Virus record (IMG/VR): IMGVR_UViG_3300030055_000003 | Length of the DNA: 64,000 bases | Direction: 5' to 3' (one strand) | Source of the DNA: a virus | Lineage: Duplodnaviria > Caudoviricetes | Shown: positions 7,920 through 63,998 of the stretch, in pieces | How the letters are laid out: each line of letters starts with the position of its first letter | How positions within the stretch are numbered: position 1 is the stretch's first letter | Notes under the pieces: generated by a model | The model's input: only the letters and a program-made list of their open reading frames with translations | Told to the model about the DNA's origin: nothing | Databases searched by the model: none | Position numbers and translations under genes: made by a program

Positions 7920-9225
7920 TTGTGAACATTATATGAACACAATTCCAATTTATAAGTCCATAAGTTATAACTCTTTAACAAGTCATACTAACTCTTATTG
8001 GATGTAAATGTACACCCTCTATTTCATCTACTTTAAAAGCTTCTGAAAATACCTTTTTAATTATATTATAAGCTCCATTAACATCTGAATTAATTAGTTT
8101 GTTTGTATTAGATTTAAATAAACCTCTTACTACACGTCTGCTTTTATTATATGTATCTTTACCTATTACTTCATTATCTAAAAAACTACAACCACTCGTA
8201 TAACTTTCGTTATTAGTTATTACTTTAATTCCTATATTAGAACACTTATATGTAATCATTTTTATTAATTTATCATATGGAATTGATATAAAATTCTGAT
8301 TAGCTGATTTGAATAAACCACTTTCCTGTTTCCAAGTTTTATTCAAACCAATTACTATGATCGTAATATTTAATCCTTCCGCATAAGTAACTATAGATTT
8401 ACTAGCATTATGTAAATAATAATTTATTTTATTATCTCTATCTTGTTGTAATTTATCTAACTTATTGCTCCAGTCCTTTTTATGTCGTTTCTTTAAATCC
8501 GACTGTAATTTAGCTTTCTTCTTATTGTAATATTGATTTATAGATTTGATAACTTTACCATTTATAATGATAGGTTGTACACCTACATTATTAACGCATG
8601 TAGCTAGGTTATCTACTCCTAAATCAATCCCTAATATTCTGTTATTGAATTCTTTAGGCTCTTGAACTTCAATCTCATAAACTATTTCTAATATGTAAGT
8701 TGAACCTTTTGGAATAATTCTAGTTTGTAATAGTTTATTTTTAACATTGGTTTTAAATAAGTTATTCAGTCCTTTTAGTGGTATAAAAGCAAAGTATAAA
8801 TATCCATCATATAAATGGGTTTGCATATTAGTCATTATAAAAATATGTCTACCATTTTTCTTTTTATATCTAGGTAATTTTGGTTTTCCAAGATATTTGT
8901 TTGGATGTTTCCAATAATCTTTTACACTTACTAAGAATGACTTCCAATCTTTACAAAGCAATCTCAATGTCATTTGTGCTGAATTTGAACCTATATCTTT
9001 GAAAGCCTCAGTCTTATTAAGTTCCTTTGACAACTCCACATATTGTAATATTGGACTACCTCTTACAAATAATTGTCTTTGAGTATAATTCGCTAGATTG
9101 TAAATGTTCTTAGCTTTAAAACAATACTCATCAAACAATTTCCATGCTTTGTGGTTTTTATCTATTATATGTCTTTCGACTCTTTGAGTTTTAATGTTAT
9201 CACCTCCTTTCAATCTTGTGTCATT
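7920..9225 (-). mobile_element. Lone-tnpB (IS1341-like) element; ends not resolved
   Basis: tnpB without tnpA; about 55 nt of 3' non-coding sequence ending near TTCAC is the candidate right end / omegaRNA region. Confidence 0.45.
7975..9213 (-). CDS. tnpB: IS200/IS605-family RNA-guided endonuclease TnpB
   Basis: RuvC-I LGIDLGVDNLA, IVIGLNKTWKQE, NESYTS, RuvC-III INSDVNGAYNI. Confidence 0.9.
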   Translation of the reverse strand: MKGGDNIKTQRVERHIIDKNHKAWKLFDEYCFKAKNIYNLANYTQRQLFVRGSPILQYVELSKELNKTEAFKDIGSNSAQMTLRLLCKDWKSFLVSVKDYWKHPNKYLGKPKLPRYKKKNGRHIFIMTNMQTHLYDGYLYFAFIPLKGLNNLFKTNVKNKLLQTRIIPKGSTYILEIVYEIEVQEPKEFNNRILGIDLGVDNLATCVNNVGVQPIIINGKVIKSINQYYNKKKAKLQSDLKKRHKKDWSNKLDKLQQDRDNKINYYLHNASKSIVTYAEGLNITIIVIGLNKTWKQESGLFKSANQNFISIPYDKLIKMITYKCSNIGIKVITNNESYTSGCSFLDNEVIGKDTYNKSRRVVRGLFKSNTNKLINSDVNGAYNIIKKVFSEAFKVDEIEGVHLHPIRVSMTC

Positions 9226-53300: not shown

Positions 53301-54080
53301 TTAATTTATTTTAATATATTCTTTCTTTTTAAAGTCTATTGGTTTAAATAAATCTATGTCCTCTATAATATCTATAATTGTTCTTTTTTCACATCTATTT
53401 AACTTTGTATATCCTTGTAAGAATCCTTTAACTTTCCATAACCATTCATTATTCTCCAGTAAAGAATTATAAGTATCCTTTTTATAATTCTTTTTAAATT
53501 CTTCTGCCTGTATCAAAGTCAAGAATACATATTTTACTGGAATAGCTTTTTTATATTCTCTTGTATAGATTTGTTTACACTCAATTCTATCAATTGTATT
53601 TAAAAAAATATCATTCCAACGTTCAGAATATATCCAAACTTGAAGTCTACTAACTAAAACTTGATTATCAGATTTTTCACATTCTCTCTTTTGAATTTCC
53701 ACATACTTGAATTGCAATTCATCAAATAAACAAATATATTCATCATCTTCTTTATTGAAAGAATAATAGTAATTACCTTCATTATTCTTATAAACTTTTT
53801 TAGTTTCACTGTCTTCAATCTGCTTTTCCAAATAAATTGTTATTATAGGTCTATAACTTCTTCCTTTATCATCAGTTTTTCTAGCCTTAGCTTTTTTTAA
53901 CATTACTTTTTCATTATTGATAGAAACTCTTGTTCCTCCTACTTTGACCGATATAAATTCATCTATGTAACCTAAAAGGTTATTATTATTATCAATTATG
54001 CAATAATAATCATTAGATAATATTTCATAATCTTGTATTAATATGTAGTCCATTTTTACGCATCTCCTTATTAATATCAC
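53301..54080 (-). CDS. Hypothetical protein
   Basis: Co-oriented ORF; SD before MDYIL. Confidence 0.55.
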   Translation of the reverse strand: MILIRRCVKMDYILIQDYEILSNDYYCIIDNNNNLLGYIDEFISVKVGGTRVSINNEKVMLKKAKARKTDDKGRSYRPIITIYLEKQIEDSETKKVYKNNEGNYYYSFNKEDDEYICLFDELQFKYVEIQKRECEKSDNQVLVSRLQVWIYSERWNDIFLNTIDRIECKQIYTREYKKAIPVKYVFLTLIQAEEFKKNYKKDTYNSLLENNEWLWKVKGFLQGYTKLNRCEKRTIIDIIEDIDLFKPIDFKKKEYIKIN

Positions 54081-54133
54081 AATTTTAGATTAAATTATAA
54101 TTTATTTTTATATTCACTTAACATTTTACTTAC

Positions 54134-54556
54134 TTATATATAACATTCGGTACAATATAACATATAACCATTCTCAGTTTTAGTTGGTAACTCATCTTTG
54201 TATCTTAAATCAAAATCTTCATAAAATTCTTTCTTACAACTAGGACAATAACATTTTATAGATGTTGTATTTATATTAAATGTTACATAACCAATATCTT
54301 GAGCTTTAATATTGTACACATTACAATATTTCATAAATTCATTAATATCATCAAATCCAATAAATTTACTATCATATAATCCTTTATTGGTAATAAATAA
54401 GAATGGATTTTTAATATCTTATATAGTTGGTTTTAATATTACTTTCACATATTCTTTATTTTTTAAATAATAATCTGTATCAAAACAGGCTATATATTGT
54501 TTAAAATTAGGTTCTGTTCTTAGTATTATATTTTTAGTTTTCTTTGTTAATTTCAT
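54134..54556 (-). pseudogene. Nonsense-interrupted copy of the 15210-15629 gene
   Basis: ATG at 54556 (MKLTKKTKNIILRTEPNF...); CAA-to-TAA at 54419-54421; frame continues to CTECYI. Confidence 0.8.
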
Positions 54557-54721
54557 CAGTTCCTCCTTTAATAATTACGAATATCTTTAAATTTAACCGA
54601 TATATTCACTCCATATTCTTTTAACCTTTTAATTTTCTTTTGACATTTAATGTACTTCTTAACCTTTTTATAAAATCTTATTGGATTTAATATCATTCAA
54701 TCACCGCTTACTTCTATTAAT

Positions 54722-54916
54722 TTATTTAGTTCTTAATTTAAATAACTCATTTTGTATAATTAATGATTTAAATTCATATATAGGCATGTCATCATTATAG
54801 TTAGAAAAACTATTTATATCTATCCCTAAAGCTACTAACTTTTCATCCAACTCCTTTTCACTATATCCTGAATAATCTTCATAAAAATTACATTTAGATC
54901 TTAATCCTCTTTTCAT
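54722..54916 (-). CDS. Short paralog of 21861-22211
   Basis: RGLRSKCNFYEDYSGYSEKELDEKL...KSLIIQNELFKLR. Confidence 0.65.
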   Translation of the reverse strand: MKRGLRSKCNFYEDYSGYSEKELDEKLVALGIDINSFSNYNDDMPIYEFKSLIIQNELFKLRTK

Positions 54917-54917
54917 A

Positions 54918-55325
54918 TTATTCGCCTTCTCTCAAATAATCAAACCTTTTTAAATATATATATTTCTTTTTAAAGTCATTAGGTAGCTTACTCCATTGTT
55001 CATCTGAATATATTTCATGTTGTCTTCCTTTAACTCTATGACCTACAAAATATCCATATCCTCCACATTTAGGGCAATACTCATCATCTTCATTGTCTAT
55101 ACTAGATGACTCTTGATAGCCACAACTATCACAATAAGCTATTTCTTCTATATTTTCTTTAGTAATATCTATGATTATTTTCTTGCCTTTATAATACCAA
55201 GTTGGCTTTCTACCCTTTAATTTAGTTACCATTTCAAACAATATTCTTTCTACAACAGCAGTATCTTTAGAACTATGAATATAATTTTGAAAATTTTTAA
55301 TTTCTGATAAGTTTACTGTTTCCAT
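54918..55325 (-). CDS. Hypothetical zinc-finger protein
   Basis: YCDSCG...YCPKCGG. Confidence 0.6.
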   Translation of the reverse strand: METVNLSEIKNFQNYIHSSKDTAVVERILFEMVTKLKGRKPTWYYKGKKIIIDITKENIEEIAYCDSCGYQESSSIDNEDDEYCPKCGGYGYFVGHRVKGRQHEIYSDEQWSKLPNDFKKKYIYLKRFDYLREGE

Positions 55326-55386
55326 CTTTGTACCTCATACTTTCTATTAGTTTATTTCCTTTTAAAATTCACCATTTATTGGAATG

Positions 55387-55578
55387 TTATTTAGACTTTA
55401 ATTTATCTTCTATTTCTTTCAAAGTATATCCATCACATATGTACTCCATATCCTTATCAAAGCATGTCCAAAATGAACTACCACTATCAAATCCAAATGC
55501 TTTATCAAGTATACAATTATATTTATTTTCAATACTTTTCTTTGTTAAACTCATAATTATCTCCTTCCTACATTCCAT
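55387..55578 (-). CDS. Hypothetical protein
   Basis: Co-oriented ORF. Confidence 0.5.
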   Translation of the reverse strand: MECRKEIIMSLTKKSIENKYNCILDKAFGFDSGSSFWTCFDKDMEYICDGYTLKEIEDKLKSK

Positions 55579-55835
55579 AGTAAATTATTTTTCTTATATA
55601 TCGTTTCTAATAATATTTTTTGATACCATTTTAATTTAATACCTAAATAATCTTCGGCAAAATCTACTTGACTCTTGTATTTATTCTTAAACTTTATAAA
55701 TTCTTCTTTCCATATTTTATCTGTAATTTCTTCACAAATACTTCTATATTTTTCTTTAGAATAGTAATATGTACTTGAAATAATGTTATCTAACTCTTTA
55801 GAGAAATTCCATAATTCAAGCCTTTCTTCATTCAT
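55557..55835 (-). CDS. Small protein ending in a terminase N-terminal-like motif
   Basis: DFAEDYLGIKLKWYQKILL...LLWNVGRR. Confidence 0.55.
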   Translation of the reverse strand: MNEERLELWNFSKELDNIISSTYYYSKEKYRSICEEITDKIWKEEFIKFKNKYKSQVDFAEDYLGIKLKWYQKILLETIYKKNNLLWNVGRR

Positions 55836-55837
55836 AT

Positions 55838-56212
55838 CTATCTCACTCCTTCAATCTTCTTGATTTTATTCATTAATGATTCCTGCTTATATATTTCAAC
55901 CTCTAATCGTAAATTGTAATTCGCTTTAAGAATACTATCATATTCTTTTCTTAACCCCTTATAAGCCTTATCAAATCCATTTTTGATCTCATCTATGTAT
56001 TCTAAGTCATTAATCTTAATTGACTTAACTATAGGGTTTATTTCCTGTTTGTTTGCTTGATTCTTTAACATTACATTAGTAAAAGTCAGTTTCTTTATAC
56101 TCTTATCTTTCTCCTTAATCTTATCTTGAATCAGTAAACATAAGTTTTCTGAGTGCATATTGATTCCTAGTACATTTGCTATTCTTTGTAATTCATTTGT
56201 CATTTTAATCAT
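55838..56212 (-). CDS. Coiled-coil hypothetical protein
   Basis: Co-oriented ORF. Confidence 0.55.
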   Translation of the reverse strand: MIKMTNELQRIANVLGINMHSENLCLLIQDKIKEKDKSIKKLTFTNVMLKNQANKQEINPIVKSIKINDLEYIDEIKNGFDKAYKGLRKEYDSILKANYNLRLEVEIYKQESLMNKIKKIEGVR

Positions 56213-56397
56213 CCTTCTTTCATTTATTATTATCTTAATTTGTTTCCTTTGAATATTTAGCTTTCAAATCATAAACCCTATTGCATATTGTTTTTTCATT
56301 AATCATTTCATTATATGCACATTTATAACAGCTATTAAATTTACATTCTTTGTCAATAATTCTATCAGCTTCTAATATTAATTCTTTAATCATATAT

Positions 56398-56820
56398 TTA
56401 TTCCTCCTCTAAGAACTTATTACATACAAAATTATTATAATCTTTTATTTGTGTATATAATCCTATTAAATCTTCCATAACTTTATCCTTGACATAACAT
56501 CCAGCAAAAGTATCTAATTGAAATTGCCCTATTATTTCATCTGTAGCCTTTGGACATGATTTTAATAATCTTTCTTTAGCCAATTCATCAGCTTGATTCT
56601 TATTTAAAAATGGTTTTATTCTTTTTTCTATTACTTTAGATATAAATTTTCTTTTATCTTTAAAGTAATTAATTGTTTCTAATTTTAATTCATTTTGTTC
56701 ATATTTTGTATTTAGTAAATCACACAATTCTTCTGTTATTTGTTCTCCATAATAATATTTGTCTTTATATTCAATCCAACTGCCTATAGTTAATCCAAAT
56801 CTTATTTTACTTTTATTCAT
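56398..56820 (-). CDS. Hypothetical protein
   Basis: ORF with SD. Confidence 0.55.
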   Translation of the reverse strand: MNKSKIRFGLTIGSWIEYKDKYYYGEQITEELCDLLNTKYEQNELKLETINYFKDKRKFISKVIEKRIKPFLNKNQADELAKERLLKSCPKATDEIIGQFQLDTFAGCYVKDKVMEDLIGLYTQIKDYNNFVCNKFLEEE

Positions 56821-57021
56821 TTTATATTCCTCCTCACTCTTCTTAAAATCTCAATTTATTTAGTTATATTTCTATTAATTTATTGACTACCATACTATTT
56901 TTAATTCTTCTTGGATTTCTTGGTCAATGTTATTTATAGTAATATATACTTTAAATAAGCCACTTAACACAATCAATCCAAATGTAAACATTATTAATTT
57001 TAACATACTTTTATCCTCCTC

Positions 57022-57687
57022 TTAATGATTAGTTACACTCTTTTTTCTATCAATGAATTCTATATACTGTTCTTTTTCATTGATTATATATCTTTTATAA
57101 GCTGACTTCCTATTCTCAATTACATTATTTTTATTCTTTTCTGAAGTATATCTTAATTTAATATTACTACCTTTAAATTTAGGGACTCTTTCAGATGCTT
57201 CATATATTTTACTTTCATCTGAATTAAATTCATTCAAATCATCACTTGCTTTTTTACTATAAACAATATTGTTAACTATATTTTCTACTTCTTCTAAAAT
57301 ATCCCCAGTCATTTCTAATTGCCTTTTATGATATCCGTTTTCAAAATTCAATTTTTCCAAACTATTTGCTTGTCCATTAATGTTTGATTCTTTTATAGAA
57401 AATCCTCCTAATTGTTTAATTAATAATTCCATAGTTTTTAACTCATTCTTTGTTGTTCTCCTTGCTTTTCTTAATTTGTTTAATGCTTTGCAAAACTTCC
57501 ATCCAGTATACAAACTAAACTTTTCTAACCCTTCAATCTTATGTAATAAATCCTGTTGAACATCATTAAATACTTTATCTTTTATCCTAAGTTTATTATA
57601 ATATTCTTTAGCTTCTGTAATTTGTTTATTAATTTCATTGGCATAATCTACTGCAATACACATTTTCATCTTTCCTTTCACTATCAT
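57022..57687 (-). CDS. Helical hypothetical protein, first gene after a promoter
   Basis: QQDLLHKIE...LRKARR..KNEL. Confidence 0.6.
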   Translation of the reverse strand: MIVKGKMKMCIAVDYANEINKQITEAKEYYNKLRIKDKVFNDVQQDLLHKIEGLEKFSLYTGWKFCKALNKLRKARRTTKNELKTMELLIKQLGGFSIKESNINGQANSLEKLNFENGYHKRQLEMTGDILEEVENIVNNIVYSKKASDDLNEFNSDESKIYEASERVPKFKGSNIKLRYTSEKNKNNVIENRKSAYKRYIINEKEQYIEFIDRKKSVTNH

Positions 57688-57710
57688 TCTATTAATTTGT
57701 TTATATTAAC

Positions 57711-57739
57711 AGTATAGTCTTGCCACATCTAAATGTCAA
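57711..57739 (-). promoter_or_regulatory. Sigma-A promoter
   Basis: TTGACA-17-TATACT. Confidence 0.7.
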
Positions 57740-57768
57740 TAGATTTCATGTTATTTTATATTAATTTA

Positions 57769-59364
57769 TTAAATATGTATTGATCTATTATCATATTGAA
57801 AATGCAATCCCTTGTATTCCTGTCCTGTATTGCAAGCATGAGTTATTCCTTTTCTATAAAGTTTTATTCCAAATTCTTTTTCACTATTTGTATAACATTC
57901 ATTTATTGATGTAAATTCTTTATTATACTCTATATTTATAATTGATTTTTTACTAGAATCTCTTATAAATTTCTTATATTCTATTAATCCCTCATCTTCC
58001 GCTTGTTTTAAATAATCTCCTATTACTGTATTATCTAAATTAAGTAGTCTACCTATTTCAGAAGCATTATGTATTCCATTATTCCATAATTCAATTGCAT
58101 TAATTACATTTTTATCATGAATTTCTACTGCTGATATATAATTGCATAGATTATATTCTCTTGCCCTTTTTAAGTACCTCTTAACAGTTTTAAAATCTAT
58201 ATCCATTATTTTAGCAATCTCCATATGTCCTACTCCTTGATTATAATATTCACAAGCTTTAACTAAATACGAACTTAAAGATTCTTGTTCACATAAATTC
58301 CAATTAATTTTAGATATATCAAATAGTTTATTAATTTTTTCATTGTTTAATATATTATTTTTTATGTATTCAAATTTACTATACCTACAGTCAATTACTA
58401 TGTAATTTTCTTCTTTTATATTATTACTTAAAGCTAGTTTTTCTTTTAATTTATCATTTTCAGACTCTTCGTAATAACTTCTTCTAGAAAAACTACATTC
58501 TTCATAATGCTGAAGTCCATTTGTTTCTATCACAATGTTATTATGTTCTATATAAAAATCATATTCTTTGTTACCACATAAAGACTCTATTTCTGATAAT
58601 ACATTTTTAGACCAATCAAAATGTTTATGTCTTTTTATTTGTAAATTTAATTGTTTAAGTAGATTATATGTAAATTTTTCACCATAACTAAATCCGTCAG
58701 AACAAACTTGACAACAAATATCTTTTTCTCGATATAATGTAGATATTGCCATATTATCTCTTGGAACTTTACAAATCGGACAATGTAATAATCCTTTGTC
58801 TTGGCTTCCAAATGTTCTTGATTCTGCATCTTTAGTATTTTTAAAAAACTTAACCATCCACGGGTCTGTATCAGCGATTGTATTAATTCCTAAAACTGGT
58901 ACTTTATTAGAGCAACATCCACAACCTTGTTTCTTTTTCAAATTTCCCTCATTTATTCTTCCATTTTCCCAACCACATTCTAAGCATTCAAATATATATT
59001 CTTTTGTATTATCATTTTTATTTCTTGATTGTTCTTTAATCTTTATTTTTCCAGTAGATACTTCGATAATATCTCCTACATTGTAATAATGTTTACGTGT
59101 ATTTATTCCTAATAATTCACCTAATTGGCAATTCTGAAAATTACCTGTCCATATGTAAAATATATCTTTATTTAAATATTTTAAACCTAATATAGTTAGA
59201 CTATTTTCTCTTTTTACTTCTACAATTTCAACCCAACCTTCTTTATCATAATAAATAAATTTAACTTTATGACTTTTACATTCAAACCAATTTATTAAAC
59301 TATTGTTATTCTTTTTTCTAGGTAAATTTTCTAAAAATACTTTTCTAATTTTATTTTCTTTCAT
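57769..59364 (-). CDS. Free-standing Vsr/EDxHD-like endonuclease with zinc ribbons, HTH and NUMOD1-like tail; paralog of 15691-17157
   Basis: RKVFLENLP...INW, CxxC repeats, YDFYI...IETNGLQHY, IVIDC. Confidence 0.65.
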   Translation of the reverse strand: MKENKIRKVFLENLPRKKNNNSLINWFECKSHKVKFIYYDKEGWVEIVEVKRENSLTILGLKYLNKDIFYIWTGNFQNCQLGELLGINTRKHYYNVGDIIEVSTGKIKIKEQSRNKNDNTKEYIFECLECGWENGRINEGNLKKKQGCGCCSNKVPVLGINTIADTDPWMVKFFKNTKDAESRTFGSQDKGLLHCPICKVPRDNMAISTLYREKDICCQVCSDGFSYGEKFTYNLLKQLNLQIKRHKHFDWSKNVLSEIESLCGNKEYDFYIEHNNIVIETNGLQHYEECSFSRRSYYEESENDKLKEKLALSNNIKEENYIVIDCRYSKFEYIKNNILNNEKINKLFDISKINWNLCEQESLSSYLVKACEYYNQGVGHMEIAKIMDIDFKTVKRYLKRAREYNLCNYISAVEIHDKNVINAIELWNNGIHNASEIGRLLNLDNTVIGDYLKQAEDEGLIEYKKFIRDSSKKSIINIEYNKEFTSINECYTNSEKEFGIKLYRKGITHACNTGQEYKGLHFQYDNRSIHI

Positions 59365-59404
59365 TAACTATTCTCCTCTATTAATTTATTTTTAATATTA
59401 CAAA

Positions 59405-59439
59405 GAACACAAACCAAGATTACTCCTAGTTTGTGTCTT
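59405..59439 (-). terminator. Terminator closing the MazF-peptide operon
   Basis: AGACACAAACUAGG-AGUAAU-CUUGGUUUGUGUUCU then UUGU; G-U pairs on the minus strand. Confidence 0.6.
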
Positions 59440-59469
59440 GTTGTTATGTATTTGTTTTAGTTACAATTC

Positions 59470-59574
59470 CTAGCCTCTACCAGAGCTAATTGCGTAACAA
59501 CTTATTTGACTAGCCATTGTAGCGATTGCTATTACTGCCATTAAAACAAATACTTTTACTTTTGATTTATTCAT
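59470..59574 (-). CDS. 34-aa secreted signalling-peptide precursor, AimP/Phr-like (absent from ORF track)
   Basis: SD AAGGAGGTGA; MNKSKVKVFVLMAVIAIATMASQISCYAISSGRG* with basic N-region, hydrophobic core and short polar tail. Confidence 0.75.
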   Translation of the reverse strand: MNKSKVKVFVLMAVIAIATMASQISCYAISSGRG

Positions 59575-59668
59575 TTGTACTTCACCTCCTTCATATGCAT
59601 CTTTTCAACACAAAATATATTTATGCTGAAGTATGCATATGAATAGAAGGATAACATTTAGTTATTTA

Positions 59669-60325
59669 TTAGCATGTACCATATTTTACTTTTATTTGTT
59701 GTTGCAATAACAATATTTTCTCACACAATATAATATTTATATTGTTTACCTCCTTTATTAATTCTTGAAAAGCCTCATCATATTGTGATGAATTGTTATG
59801 TATTAGCATGTCCTCTGCAACCACAAGGACATTACTAAAATTTTTTTCTAATAAACTTAAATTTAGTTTAGCAATAAGCTTTTCTAAATAACCTTCAACA
59901 TTATATGGATCACATCTTTTATAAGTTTCATAACAAAATTTATAAATTTTTATTAATTCTTCATTTGATAATTCTTTTTTATAGCAATGAACATAATTAT
60001 TTAAAGCTTTTGCATAGTCTTGTTTATGTCTTTGTGTGGTTAAATAATTAGGATAGTTCTCTAATTTTTCTTTAAGTTCTTTTGAATATAATCTAGCCGA
60101 GGTTATACTACCATTTAAATTTTGTTCAATACATTTTATTTCAGCATTTGTTAAATCACTTAATAATAATCTTATTTCATCTATATCTTTTAATGAATCT
60201 ATTTCTTGAAACCTCATTTTTTTTAGCATATTCCTAGCTTTTTCCACTCCATTTATCTCATTATCCCATTTATGATATACATCACTTTCTATCCTATCTG
60301 TTACGCTTCTTCTCTTATTTATCAT
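59669..60325 (-). CDS. Predicted all-helical (TPR-like) protein; candidate peptide receptor or antitoxin
   Basis: Amphipathic helices such as DYAKALNNYVHCY; lies between MazF and the peptide gene. Confidence 0.45.
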   Translation of the reverse strand: MINKRRSVTDRIESDVYHKWDNEINGVEKARNMLKKMRFQEIDSLKDIDEIRLLLSDLTNAEIKCIEQNLNGSITSARLYSKELKEKLENYPNYLTTQRHKQDYAKALNNYVHCYKKELSNEELIKIYKFCYETYKRCDPYNVEGYLEKLIAKLNLSLLEKNFSNVLVVAEDMLIHNNSSQYDEAFQELIKEVNNINIILCEKILLLQQQIKVKYGTC

Positions 60326-60350
60326 TTTCTCATCCCCATTCCACCATAAG

Positions 60351-61154
60351 TTATATTGCTATCACTTCTTTTTCTTTCTCACATTGCATATAAAATTCCC
60401 TGTAATTTAGATTATTATCTTCACAATATATTTGTAATTCATATAATAAATCACTTCTTTCTTTTCGCAGAAGGTCGATTAAACTTTCTGTTTTGGTTTC
60501 TATAATTAATTCTTCACAATTCTTAATAGCATTTAATCGTTTGTTTATTTTATTTTGCATATATCTAGGCAGTTTTTCAAGTGGAGTCTTTTCTTGTAAT
60601 TCATTCATTGAAATATCTTTTGCTATTTTAATTTTCTTTTTTGTTATATCATCAAGTACTCCAACTCTGCTTTTAATTCTTCTTTTATCTAAAGTTCTTA
60701 CTTGCTCTAGCATAACTATTGAATCTTTAGGTAATCCAAATTGACCTGCTGAAATCTCGACATGCGTTGGAAGTTTACTTTTAGTTTGTTGGCTTGTAAC
60801 AAATGCTACTATAACAGTAGGAGAATACTTATTTCCAATTTCGTTCTGTATACAAATAGCGAATCTGTCATTATTTTGTTCGCTCCATCGCCCCCCATCT
60901 AAATTGACATATAATACCTCACCCCATTCAATATCCTTTAAATCTATATTATTATTTATTTTATTATCAGCAATATTTCTATTGCTATGTACATTGTTAA
61001 CTTCTATTTTTACTTGTTTAATTTGTTTATTAATATCTAGGTCTTTAACTTCTATCTTTGCTTCAATTAACTTATTATCATTCTTTAATTCCTCTTTATC
61101 CATTTCCAACTTAATCATCATTAGTTGTTCTCTTAACTCTAACATTACAACCAC
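60351..61154 (-). CDS. mazF: PemK/MazF-family endoribonuclease with N- and C-terminal extensions
   Basis: WGEVLYVNL...SEQ...R...IQNEIGNKYSPTVIVA.VT...KLPTHVEI...DSIVMLEQVRTLDK.R; likely ATG at 61145. Confidence 0.9.
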   Translation of the reverse strand: MVVMLELREQLMMIKLEMDKEELKNDNKLIEAKIEVKDLDINKQIKQVKIEVNNVHSNRNIADNKINNNIDLKDIEWGEVLYVNLDGGRWSEQNNDRFAICIQNEIGNKYSPTVIVAFVTSQQTKSKLPTHVEISAGQFGLPKDSIVMLEQVRTLDKRRIKSRVGVLDDITKKKIKIAKDISMNELQEKTPLEKLPRYMQNKINKRLNAIKNCEELIIETKTESLIDLLRKERSDLLYELQIYCEDNNLNYREFYMQCEKEKEVIAI

Positions 61155-61226
61155 CTTCCTCTAATTATTAAATCCCTTTAAAATTACTTTTTTATTATAT
61201 TAATTTGTTCCTGTTTCTATACTCTT

Positions 61227-61434
61227 ATGTTACATCTTATTTCCAAACTTGTCAATACTTTTTTTAAAATATTTATTTATTTCTTTTAATTTATTGACTT
61301 GTTCCTTATGAATATTATCCTACCACCATGTGGTAACTCTGTCAATACTTTTTTAAATTTATTTTTGTTCTTTTATTAATTTGTTTGTATCTCTTCTATG
61401 ACCTAATAATATACCCTACGGAATATAATGTCAA
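61227..61434 (-). promoter_or_regulatory. Three tandem sigma-A promoters
   Basis: TTGACA at 61250, 61340 and 61429, each 17 nt from TAACAT, TAGGAT or TATTAT and preceded by AAAAGT(A/G). Confidence 0.75.
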
Positions 61435-61525
61435 CACTTTTATCAAAATAATTTGTAGTTCTGTTAATTTATTTTAAACACTCCTTAAACATAGCAAATA
61501 AGCCAAATAAATAAACAAAAAGAAA

Positions 61526-61548
61526 AGGTTGGATGCTTGCTCCAACCT
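61526..61548 (-). terminator. Intrinsic terminator after the MrpR-like gene
   Basis: AGGTTGGA-GCAAGCA-TCCAACCT followed by TTTCTTTTTG. Confidence 0.8.
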
Positions 61549-62656
61549 AGCTCTCTATCTTTTCTGAATCAATACTTACTTCTAATTCAGATGATAATTC
61601 AATTTCTATCTCTTTATTTTCAACTTTAGAAATATTTTTATTAGTTCTCTTTTTTGTTTTTATATCTAATCCTGATATTAATTGAAAATCTCTTCGGACT
61701 CTTGAGTTTTTATTTACTGTAAACGTATTGTCATATATTTCATTTACATCATCTATATCAATATTTGTAACCATATCATTTTGTTTATATTTTTCAAATA
61801 ATAAATCAAATCTTCTATTCATATTTAAATTAGGTACACTTATTCTATTAATTCCATTACTTTTTGAAAGATTTCCTAGTTTATTATATACATCTTCGGC
61901 ACTCATATGTTGCCAATCAACTCTTTCAGTTGTTTTAATAATAAATCCTATATCTAAATAATTAATGTCTTCCATTTCTGTTTCTTTTTTATTAACTCTT
62001 TTCAAACTTGCTTTTGATTGTTTTCTTGGTTTAGTAAAACAATTTTTAGCTGAATCTATAAATCTTATAAATGAATTATCAATCGGCAATTCCAACAAAC
62101 CTTTTTCTTCTGAATAAACATTTAAAATTTTCTTTTCTCTATCTACATCTTCCCATTTTATAGTTCCCACATTATCTATAGGAACTCCATATCTTAACAA
62201 TGTCAACATTGCCCTGTCTACATCTGTACAATCTAATCCATATATAAATTCATTAAATTCTTGAAGTGTCTTGTACTGTTGTTTCTTAGCTTCATCACTA
62301 ACATCAAATAAACCAGTTGTATCAATTGAATCACATGGATTCCCTACATAGTTATAACCTTTTTTATATGCCCAACCTATATAATTTGATATTGTAGTAA
62401 ATAACATACTTTTTGTTGTCATTGAAGTTGTTGCAGTAGTTTTTATTGCTTGAATTATCTCTTGTTTAGTCCAATTATACAATTCTTTCTCTTTGTTTAA
62501 TTCTAAGAAATTGACTCTAGTATTTAACAAAATCCAGTAAGTTCTTTTTGTAGTATCTGAATATCTATCTTCGACTTCTTCTAACCAATCAGCTTTTCTT
62601 TTTAGATATTCATTTAAACCATCATATTTTACATCTTCATCTAAGAATTCATACAT
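61547..62656 (-). CDS. MrpR/YopR-like phage repressor (catalytically degenerate tyrosine-recombinase fold)
   Basis: E....KELYNW...EI, LLRYGV, IKWEDVD; no intact HxxR; follows a YopQ-like gene. Confidence 0.65.
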   Translation of the reverse strand: MYEFLDEDVKYDGLNEYLKRKADWLEEVEDRYSDTTKRTYWILLNTRVNFLELNKEKELYNWTKQEIIQAIKTTATTSMTTKSMLFTTISNYIGWAYKKGYNYVGNPCDSIDTTGLFDVSDEAKKQQYKTLQEFNEFIYGLDCTDVDRAMLTLLRYGVPIDNVGTIKWEDVDREKKILNVYSEEKGLLELPIDNSFIRFIDSAKNCFTKPRKQSKASLKRVNKKETEMEDINYLDIGFIIKTTERVDWQHMSAEDVYNKLGNLSKSNGINRISVPNLNMNRRFDLLFEKYKQNDMVTNIDIDDVNEIYDNTFTVNKNSRVRRDFQLISGLDIKTKKRTNKNISKVENKEIEIELSSELEVSIDSEKIES

Positions 62657-62657
62657 T

Positions 62658-63998
62658 CTACATTACCTCCTTAGCTATCTTTTCAAAATATTCATATATG
62701 TGTTTTACATTACAATCTTTTATATCTAATTTAAATTTTTTATTTAAATCTTCATTAATTTTTATTAGCTTATCAGCCACATCTCCAGCTAATAATCTTG
62801 AATTTTCATTGTTTTTTAATACGTTCGCTATTGCAAGATAACCAACAAACATATTAGGTTTTAATAAAAAGTTATGTTCTTTCATTACTTCTATATCGTC
62901 ACCAAAGTATTGAGACGATAAATATTCAATTAACATATCTATAATATTAGATATTTTTCTTGCTTCTCTTTCAGATGTTACGTCATTATCTATTTTTTCA
63001 ATATCCATAAACTCTACACTATCATTAAGAACACTTAGATAAGTTAATGATTTTTTTACTTTACATTCGCTAATAATATTTGCAACCTTATTTTTTAATG
63101 TTTTTGAATTAGTAGTTACATATTGTATAAATCTATTTTCTGGTGTATCTTTTAAAGTTTTTGCATAGGTTTTATCTGTTGAATTTTGTTCAAAAGTATC
63201 GGAAGTATATTGTTTTGCTTCACTTGGACTCATTAAAAAGAAAAATACACCTAATCCTTCATCTTCAACTTCTGTGTCTTCAAAATAAGCGTCCGCTAAA
63301 GCAGTAGATCTATGATTTCCATCATTTATTATCATTGGAGTATAATTAATTGAATTACTATCAAAATTTGGAGTAACTTCTAGTCTTCCAAACTTCTTCT
63401 TATACTCAGGAATAAATTTAACTTGTGGTTCTTTATTAGGCATATCTAAAACAGTAAAAGTTATAGCTGTTGGTTTTATATTGTGTTTTTTAAATCTTTG
63501 AATTAAAGAATTAATTCCATCTTTATTTACATTGATTTTTTCAATCTCTTCACCATTTGGAAGTTTTACAATTTTTCTAGCTCTTTGAATCCCTTCAAAA
63601 TTTCCCAACTTATTATTTTCTTTTATTTGCGCAAGTTGTTTAGCTTTGATGAAAAACCAATAAGCATTATTTCCAACCTTTTGACAATCTTCAAATACAA
63701 TTGTTTTTAATTCTTCTTGCTTTTCAGCTTCTTGATATACCTCATAATTCGTTAATACTGTACCTGTAAAATAATCTGTTGGATTTATATTAACTCCTAA
63801 ATTCTTTTCATTAGCTTTTGCAAAATTAAAAATTGATTTTGATAAAGCTATTAATACATTTTCATTTTTTATTTCATGTACTGTTAGCCCTTTATTGAAT
63901 AGTAATGCTGGAATATCTAAATTTAATCCTTTAGCACTAAATTCTTTATTGATATCTTGTTGTAATCTCATATTCGCTATTTCATTTTGAATAACCAA
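62658..63998 (-). CDS. DndB/ParB-like (DGQHR-type) protein, YopQ-like (start may lie outside window)
   Basis: IINDGNHRSTAL; AITF; context upstream of the MrpR-like gene. Confidence 0.6.
   Translation of the reverse strand: MVIQNEIANMRLQQDINKEFSAKGLNLDIPALLFNKGLTVHEIKNENVLIALSKSIFNFAKANEKNLGVNINPTDYFTGTVLTNYEVYQEAEKQEELKTIVFEDCQKVGNNAYWFFIKAKQLAQIKENNKLGNFEGIQRARKIVKLPNGEEIEKINVNKDGINSLIQRFKKHNIKPTAITFTVLDMPNKEPQVKFIPEYKKKFGRLEVTPNFDSNSINYTPMIINDGNHRSTALADAYFEDTEVEDEGLGVFFFLMSPSEAKQYTSDTFEQNSTDKTYAKTLKDTPENRFIQYVTTNSKTLKNKVANIISECKVKKSLTYLSVLNDSVEFMDIEKIDNDVTSEREARKISNIIDMLIEYLSSQYFGDDIEVMKEHNFLLKPNMFVGYLAIANVLKNNENSRLLAGDVADKLIKINEDLNKKFKLDIKDCNVKHIYEYFEKIAKEVM

Follow-up and report, generated by a model that had tools for sequence, protein, structure and literature searches.

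A short open reading frame (ORF) at positions 59,470 to 59,574 of a 64,000-nucleotide stretch of phage DNA (hereafter, the window) raises the question of whether it encodes a secreted signalling peptide and, if so, which protein senses this peptide and what the signal controls. The initial annotation, made from the sequence alone, had read it as an arbitrium-like pre-peptide. To our knowledge, nearly all that is known of peptide communication between phages comes from AimR-type and Rap-type receptors of Bacillus-group phages. The window belongs to an IMG/VR virus record of 140,944 bases with 25% GC and an estimated completeness of 57%; the sizeable genes of the window are all on the minus strand, and the 24 datasets listed as carrying the stretch are all peat metagenomes (possibly including the source sample), with no RNA dataset among those listed.

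The pre-peptide gene and its counterparts in related phages

The features at and around the ORF are as follows.
59470-59574, minus strand: pre-peptide gene of 34 codons and a stop codon (start codon ATG, 59572-59574; stop codon, 59470-59472)
59491-59574, minus strand: predicted signal part, codons 1-28
59473-59490, minus strand: predicted released tail, ISSGRG
59582-59592, minus strand: Shine-Dalgarno (SD) site GAAGGAGGTGA, 7 nt ahead of the peptide ATG
59585-59650, minus strand: hairpin in the leader RNA; GAAGGAGG, most of the SD site, is paired within its 3' arm
59400-59441, minus strand: terminator-like hairpin closing the peptide cistron (14 pairs at 59406-59437, GUAA tetraloop, -19.6 kcal/mol)
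59669-60325, minus strand: TPR-like protein of 218 amino acids (aa), candidate cytoplasmic receptor, ten helices by AlphaFold2; 94 nt upstream of the peptide gene
57769-59364, minus strand: homing-endonuclease-like gene, 531 aa (phrog_4538, phrog_9084, phrog_559; HTH_28), outside the module

The ORF is the sole occupant of the 304-nt gap between the 218-aa gene and the homing-endonuclease-like gene. It was found exactly where the initial annotation had placed it, with 34 codons and on the minus strand, which had been left unstated. The strong SD site claimed for it is present, and the claimed basic start, the hydrophobic core and the final CYA-ISSGRG-stop can all be seen in its translation, which has three lysines among the first seven residues (MNKSKVK). 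A six-frame scan of the whole 140.9-kb record gave 1739 start-to-stop candidates of 22 to 60 codons. Our export filter required that the first 10 residues include two or more K/R and be free of D/E, that an uncharged hydrophobic stretch reach 14 residues or more, that position -1 be A and position -3 small or aliphatic, and that 4 to 8 residues remain as the tail. Two candidates passed this filter, and the ORF at 59470-59574 is the only one of them with an SD site.

We compared the window with 13 further metagenomic phage loci that contain a relative of the 218-aa gene (14 loci in all). Locus searches with the 218-aa protein or its alignment had returned none and then two viral contigs, the same two among metagenome contigs and none among genome contigs, and a megablast search of 57000-62000 against curated phages gave no match. 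In each of the 14 loci, the 218-aa gene is followed on the same strand by a small ORF of 28 to 38 codons, with a GGAGGTGA or AGAGGTGA-type ribosome site located 7 to 10 nt before the ATG (14/14), and all 14 products have a K/R-rich start and a hydrophobic run of 15 to 27 residues. Homologs without a conserved SD site and hydrophobic core had been named as what would speak against the pre-peptide reading; all 13 related loci keep both. This linkage in the relatives is not independent evidence, since all the loci are from related phages with a conserved gene order. Elsewhere in this genome, one more DNA match, a weak one (L002; 56 nt, 79%), was discarded as a chance AT-rich match, because there is no related ORF there.

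An AxA site followed by 4 to 7 residues and the stop was found in 10 of the 14 loci, including the window, the tail having six residues in six loci, seven in three loci and four in L022. The cleavage sites were placed by a rule-based check of the n-, h- and c-regions and the AxA motif, which is a rule of thumb. The sequences around the predicted cut (slash) are the following.
Window: CYA/ISSGRG
L004: VFA/TGSSRG
L024: ASA/IGSSRG
L012: AMA/GTMGRG
L013: VLA/GPPTHG
L015: ALA/SGSPRS
L010 and L016: AFA/TTGSGRG
L011: AFA/SSGSGRG
L022: AFA/TINP
Second precursor type (shorter, with an MKK start and ...ALP... in the core): L003, HIL-ISSGRG; L014, HIL-TTNPWG; L020, TIL-SSGGGWG

Four of the 14 precursors have no clear AxA beside the tail (L014, L020, L021 and, in part, L003, whose best site leaves a tail of 10), and that of L021 ends in a different, 17-residue tail; processing is therefore not uniform.

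Allelic tails, which the initial annotation had proposed to look for in related phages, are present; they are conserved by amino acid and differ between receptor clades in the manner of pherotypes. The tail TTGSGRG is common to L010 and L016 with six of its seven codons different, including an AGT/TCA switch for Ser and an AGA/CGT switch for Arg. The tail ISSGRG is likewise common to the window and L003 with 4 of 18 bases different, including TCT versus AGT. The receptors of the latter two loci are 70% identical and their leaders share 79% DNA identity, while the signal parts share 53% DNA identity and belong to two different types, unrelated as proteins, in front of an identical tail. This switch of signal type with a constant tail suggests recombination inside the tiny gene. 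The two types seen in the family, one K-rich and ending in AxA and the other the short MKK...ALP..HIL type, are exemplified by window positions 59491-59574 and L003 positions 1732-1809, respectively. Judged from these codon and amino-acid comparisons, selection is acting on the tail. A tree of the 218-aa proteins contains one well-supported clade with xxxxRG tails, with GPPTHG as the one exception, and another clade with the tails TTNPWG, SGGGWG, SGSPRS, TINP and the long tail of L021. Hence the tail follows the receptor clade even where the signal part has been swapped, which is the pattern expected if the signal must fit the receptor.

The gene is flanked by two RNA hairpins. The leader hairpin folds at -32.8 kcal/mol (z -6.6), a stability equalled by 0 of 200 shuffles, RNAalifold on 11 loci gave 20 consensus leader pairs, 16 of them with compensatory double changes, and several G-U pairs are possible on the coding strand only. 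A hairpin of 13 to 20 bp (-16 to -24 kcal/mol), mostly GNRA-capped, follows the peptide stop in 14 of the 14 loci. With a leader masking the SD site and a hairpin closing the unit, the peptide cistron appears as a discrete, gated unit, and according to the folding model little of it should be translated from the operon transcript as long as the leader is neither opened nor removed. A search for a promoter inside the leader hairpin loop gave weak matches only.

The gene that comes after the peptide unit in the window is the homing-endonuclease insertion, which is missing at the corresponding place in several relatives; in L010 and L011, the next gene encodes a membrane protein of 39 aa. In the window, the homing-endonuclease-like gene and a 221-aa gene (57022-59364, minus strand) separate the peptide unit from a small membrane-protein gene, which follows directly in L010 and L011, and other genes occupy this slot in L003, L014 and L024. 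Such varied contents point to an insertion hot spot. Conserved single-pass membrane proteins of 33 to 39 aa, forming one family and ending in ...(E)ELKII(K/W), are encoded downstream of the module in all relatives (for example, window 56887-57006, minus strand; L004 6622-6738; L003 4141-4242; L010 1382-1501). Elsewhere in the phage genome, an IS605 OrfB/TnpB-type gene (OrfB_IS605 plus a Cas12f1-like TNB domain) is located at 7975-9213 on the minus strand.

Two readings would deny the ORF a secreted product. It is very short and is flanked by two strong conserved hairpins, as would suit a non-functional chance ORF or a regulatory leader ORF serving these hairpins; this reading is nevertheless extremely unlikely, as 14 diverged loci have retained the frame, start, SD site and stop, the amino acids of the tail are kept through many synonymous changes, and chance seldom produces such a signal-peptide anatomy (2 of 1739 candidates). 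The product might instead stay uncleaved in the membrane, as a small signal-anchor protein with its six-residue tail outside, and act in superinfection exclusion, in holin modulation or like a type I toxin. A hydrophobic run of 15 to 27 residues is enough to span the membrane, small single-pass proteins such as the adjoining 39-aa '...EELKIIK' family are common in this phage group, and 4 of the 14 homologs have no clear AxA. However, a conserved tail behind a swapped signal part is just the reverse of the pattern expected for a membrane anchor: it is the hydrophobic part that is least conserved and is exchanged between close relatives, while the short hydrophilic tail is under purifying selection. 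An AxA located 4 to 7 residues before the stop in 10 of 14 loci would also be pointless in an uncleaved protein, and long signal peptides are normal in Gram-positive bacteria. We thus regard the membrane anchor as improbable.

The ORF at 59470-59574 is, on this comparative evidence, almost certainly a real coding gene, and its product is quite likely a secreted and processed short peptide; the exact mature form ISSGRG, its export and its role in signalling we infer from the design of the precursor. Three other assignments were discarded. A lipoprotein reading is contradicted by the Cys, which occurs in some homologs only, with no lipobox conserved; an AgrD-like cyclic peptide would use the Cys five residues before SSGRG, which is not conserved, and there is no AgrB among the neighbouring genes scanned; and a Pfam DUF1146 match to the peptide (E 0.087) is below the cut-off.

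The TPR-like protein and the MazF-encoding operon

The distance between the 218-aa gene and the peptide gene varies from 39 to 140 nt across the loci, always on the same strand. The AlphaFold2 model of the 218-aa protein, computed with a five-sequence alignment, has a pLDDT of 90.3 and a pTM of 0.84, and its ten helices are arranged in pairs, corresponding in the model to about five TPR-like repeats with no HTH. An exhaustive structural comparison of this model returned TPR proteins throughout, with Z scores of 10 to 13.7. The best score, 13.7, was to kinesin-light-chain-type repeats, and the peptide receptors RapI (11.7), PlcR (11.2), NprR (10.1) and the phi105 Rap with peptide (9.8) match no better than unrelated TPR proteins do; these values are in a range that may reflect no more than a common arrangement, and they show the fold and not kinship with RRNPP receptors. 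Foldseek against the PDB, AFDB clusters and BFVD gave generic TPR or designed-repeat matches only (E >= 0.005), and Atlas features also point to TPR, with scores below 0.9. At the sequence level, Pfam returned no family at E <= 0.01 and no TPR HMM match, and together with profile searches of PDB sequences, which gave no match either, this revealed no similarity to AimR, Rap, PlcR or NprR. The protein has four close relatives with 44 to 70% identity, and a profile search of 1.8 billion representatives found 42 family members at E <= 0.001, the full-length ones having about 196 to 229 aa and none exceeding 229 aa.

By analogy with known systems, we lean slightly towards the view that the peptide is sensed by the adjacent TPR protein, as an RRNPP/arbitrium-like signal with a new, compact receptor. 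As the 218-aa protein is without a DNA-binding domain, its output would have to be protein-protein, as with Rap proteins.

The genes upstream of the candidate receptor are as follows.
60351-61154, minus strand: extended MazF/PemK (EndoA-type) gene, core at about residues 76-183; 25 nt separate its end from the TPR gene
61227-61434, minus strand: three near-consensus sigma-70-type promoter matches (10-11 of 12 hexamer positions each), ahead of the MazF-like gene
61547-62656, minus strand: MrpR/SroF-like recombinase-fold protein (PF22822 at the cut-off; phrog_5830, integrase)
62658-63998, minus strand: DndB-like protein, 446 aa, immediately 5' of the MrpR-like gene (PF14072 with E 2.5e-6, short of the cut-off)

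The MazF-like protein matches PF02452 with an E-value of 1.3e-24, and its core shows about 50% identity (E about 1e-25 to Bacillus and Staphylococcus MazF structures), with the SEQ...R...QN...T(S/A)Q core aligned. In each of the nine loci where the MazF-like gene is complete, it precedes the TPR gene by 9 to 31 nt, and the C-terminal end of the MazF-like protein is found upstream of the TPR gene in three more loci, on truncated contigs. Of the proteins searched in curated phages, the MazF core is the only one that matches other phages. About 30 full-length relatives share the extensions, with a short helix at the N-terminus, a linker that is disordered and, at the C-terminus, a confidently predicted helical hairpin with KTPLEKLP. 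No fusion of MazF with a TPR protein turned up among MazF-like proteins of 146 to 468 aa or in a profile search. The C-terminal 90 residues (60351-60620) form this hairpin with a pLDDT of about 90, and contain KTPLEKLP and an invariant Cys; the motif is absent in ordinary MazF. In the predicted structures, the hairpin could be where the TPR protein docks, or it could inhibit the MazF-like protein itself. A complex prediction with two MazF-like chains and the TPR protein scored 0.00 and, being without controls, weighs neither for nor against binding. No match to a MazE-family antitoxin (PF04014) was found in the 141-kb record (57% complete), in which the TPR protein is the only co-transcribed neighbour of the MazF-like gene. 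We consider MazF as the output of the proposed signalling module to be possible, though doubtful.

The three promoter matches have the form TTGACA-17-(-10) and a spacing of about 90 bp, and are located between the MrpR-like and MazF-like genes; they are consensus matches only. In relatives, the MrpR-like gene carries PF22822 (MrpR_N_CB) and PF22823 (MrpR_C_cat), and the DndB-like/MrpR-like gene order recurs. MrpR (YopR/SroF) is the master repressor of SPbeta (PMC10516654). Because tblastn of the MrpR-like and DndB-like proteins against SPbeta-type and curated phages gave no match, the likeness of these genes to SPbeta-type repressors is at the profile level only.

Distribution of the MazF recognition site

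UACAU is the cut site of B. subtilis MazF, and the transcripts of SPbeta and phi3T are rich in it (bioRxiv 10.1101/2023.04.27.537455); MazF is reported to degrade most phage mRNAs while sparing the operon that holds sroF (bioRxiv 10.1101/2025.11.27.690993). The arbitrium system of phi3T acts via the host MazF, which is inhibited by AimX and YosL, and high AimP leads to active MazF and thereby to lysogeny (PMC10769878). In view of the published cut site and the sparing of the sroF operon, we counted UACAU on the coding strand in window positions 61155-63998 versus 54000-59469, together with L004, L014, L015, L016, L020 and L021. These seven loci contain 10 sites in 17.5 kb on the repressor side versus 74 in 23.9 kb downstream of the peptide gene, so that the site is about 5-fold rarer on the repressor side. 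The ratio of 0.18 is the lowest among 30 5-mers of the same composition, the next being 0.57 (binomial p = 2.5e-9). A single UACAU is present in the 2.85 kb of the window that hold the DndB-like and MrpR-like genes, and the 3-kb segment over the repressor genes is the UACAU-poorest of the whole record (1 versus a mean of 6.6, sd 3.0). This skew would be a prediction of the phi3T model, given an EndoA specificity of the phage MazF, which we assume from its roughly 50% identity to EndoA-type MazF. It could also result from codon or amino-acid bias of the repressor genes.

UACAU also occurs between the peptide stop and the foot of the terminator in 8 of the 14 loci, where about 0.1 per locus is expected, namely in the window (59446-59450, minus strand), L010, L011, L012, L014, L016, L020 and L024. 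It is found within 60 nt before the peptide start in 5 of the 14 loci; four of these have it at -24 to -26, where it belongs to the hairpin's 3' arm. Counts around the peptide gene are not independent because the loci are related. These sites could enable a trimming of the peptide mRNA by MazF as feedback.

Comparison with known systems and a candidate mechanism

The module resembles arbitrium in several respects. It has a phage-borne, Sec-type pre-peptide gene whose last six residues are the presumed signal, a receptor-type gene immediately 5' of it in the same orientation, and a strong hairpin 3' of the peptide gene. Its tails carry Arg-Gly near the C-terminus behind a variable, Gly/Ser-rich front. 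It lies, in this IMG/VR virus record, beside a gene of the MrpR/SroF type, i.e., the lysogeny-repressor type of SPbeta phages, and a MazF RNase and a UACAU skew are involved. On the other hand, the candidate receptor here has 218 aa rather than the about 380 aa of AimR, which combines an HTH with TPRs; it has no HTH and represents a separate family of about 42 representatives, so that this is no member of the AimR-AimP system. The tail motif is ...RG, whereas that of AimP is ...RGA, 74% of clade-2 AimP ending in RGA and most AimP being xxxRGA (PMC13220667). Moreover, MazF is phage-encoded inside the operon here but host-encoded in phi3T, and the module is downstream of the repressor genes, not upstream. 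No MazE-like or AimX-like gene, as a candidate for an aimX-type effector, was recognised after the terminator hairpin. The term arbitrium-like, used in the initial annotation, thus holds for the design of the locus, but not for an AimR homolog or an HTH, of which there is none, nor for the tail motif.

In its lack of a DNA-binding domain, the candidate TPR receptor is comparable to those of the Rap-Phr systems (phi105 Rap, PDB 8rte; RapI of ICEBs1, PDB 4i1a), which act on a partner protein, and there too a small secreted propeptide gene lies immediately downstream and the mature signal is a C-terminal penta- or hexapeptide. However, Rap proteins have about 350 to 380 aa and an N-terminal three-helix bundle that carries the output, as compared with about five TPR-like repeats here, and there is neither sequence similarity nor a fold score better than that of unrelated TPR proteins. 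The RRNPP_detector signature consists of five criteria, namely a propeptide of 10 to 100 aa, its secretion by the Sec translocon (SignalP), a receptor of 250 to 500 aa, TPR HMMs in the receptor and directly neighbouring genes (distance -50 to 191), and the known RRNPP receptors have 285 to 473 aa (PMC10075063). The propeptide of 34 aa, with a Sec-type design by the rule-based check, on the same strand and 94 nt from the TPR gene, agrees with this signature in size and position, but the candidate receptor, with 218 aa (<250), is too short for it and gives no TPR HMM match, its predicted fold nonetheless being a TPR-like solenoid; accordingly, RRNPP_detector at its default settings would miss the module. 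Like MazEF (EndoA/EndoAI, PDB 4mdx/4me7), the operon has an EndoA-type MazF core and a co-transcribed downstream gene that could neutralise the toxin. It differs from MazEF in that there is no MazE/AbrB-fold antitoxin, the toxin has N- and C-terminal extensions, and the adjoining genes encode a TPR protein and then a secreted peptide. A limited literature search found no description of a MazF-TPR-peptide module.

Putting these observations together, we propose the following scheme. Signal peptidase I would cut the Sec-type pre-peptide after CYA, freeing ISSGRG outside a presumably Gram-positive host (low GC, peat). By analogy with RRNPP and arbitrium systems, the peptide would accumulate with the number of infected or lysogenic cells, be imported and then be bound by the adjacent 218-aa TPR-only protein. 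The likeliest partner of the latter would be the co-transcribed, antitoxin-less phage MazF RNase, by direct contact, so that the peptide level would set MazF activity. MazF would spare the UACAU-poor repressor genes and cut the UACAU-rich phage mRNAs, shifting the phage towards lysogeny, and the leader hairpin that masks the ribosome site would provide an extra gate on translation of the peptide. We infer the cleavage site, export, uptake and peptide-TPR binding from the known systems, and more weakly the control of MazF by the TPR protein through direct contact and the resulting choice between lysis and lysogeny. As a whole, a peptide-gated toxin switch, in which the TPR protein is a new type of antitoxin or regulator, the hexapeptide sets its grip on MazF and the RNase decides on lysogeny, is a tentative proposal that is rather less probable than not to be correct in full.

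Alternatively, the peptide may be secreted but sensed by a host receptor, by a membrane sensor or by the MazF-like protein itself, with the TPR protein serving as an inhibitor or adaptor of MazF. The export design of the peptide would be accounted for equally, the match to the TPR fold is generic, there is no canonical MazE in the record, and the C-terminal helical hairpin of the MazF-like protein is unexplained and may be a docking or ligand site; in E. coli, the EDF pentapeptide is reported to act directly on MazF. We consider this alternative unlikely, since the identity of the tail follows the TPR clade even where the signal part has been swapped (window versus L003), and a TPR gene directly upstream of a secreted propeptide gene is the defining RRNPP layout (PMC10075063).

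With sensing by the TPR protein as the preferred reading, the locus would represent a module with arbitrium-type logic and a compact, HTH-less receptor family that is missed by length and TPR-HMM filters, in uncultured low-GC peat phages, and it places a phage-encoded MazF inside a signalling operon that adjoins SroF/MrpR-type repressor genes poor in the MazF site. The peptide, the receptor and the RNase are small and easily synthesised, making in vitro work possible without the host. If the proposed wiring is true, this would be the first signal peptide to control a toxin by way of a TPR adaptor, and the link between arbitrium and MazF in phi3T would be an instance of an older and more general design. 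If the peptide-gated switch in particular is true, communication from phage to phage would act directly on an RNase without a DNA-binding receptor.
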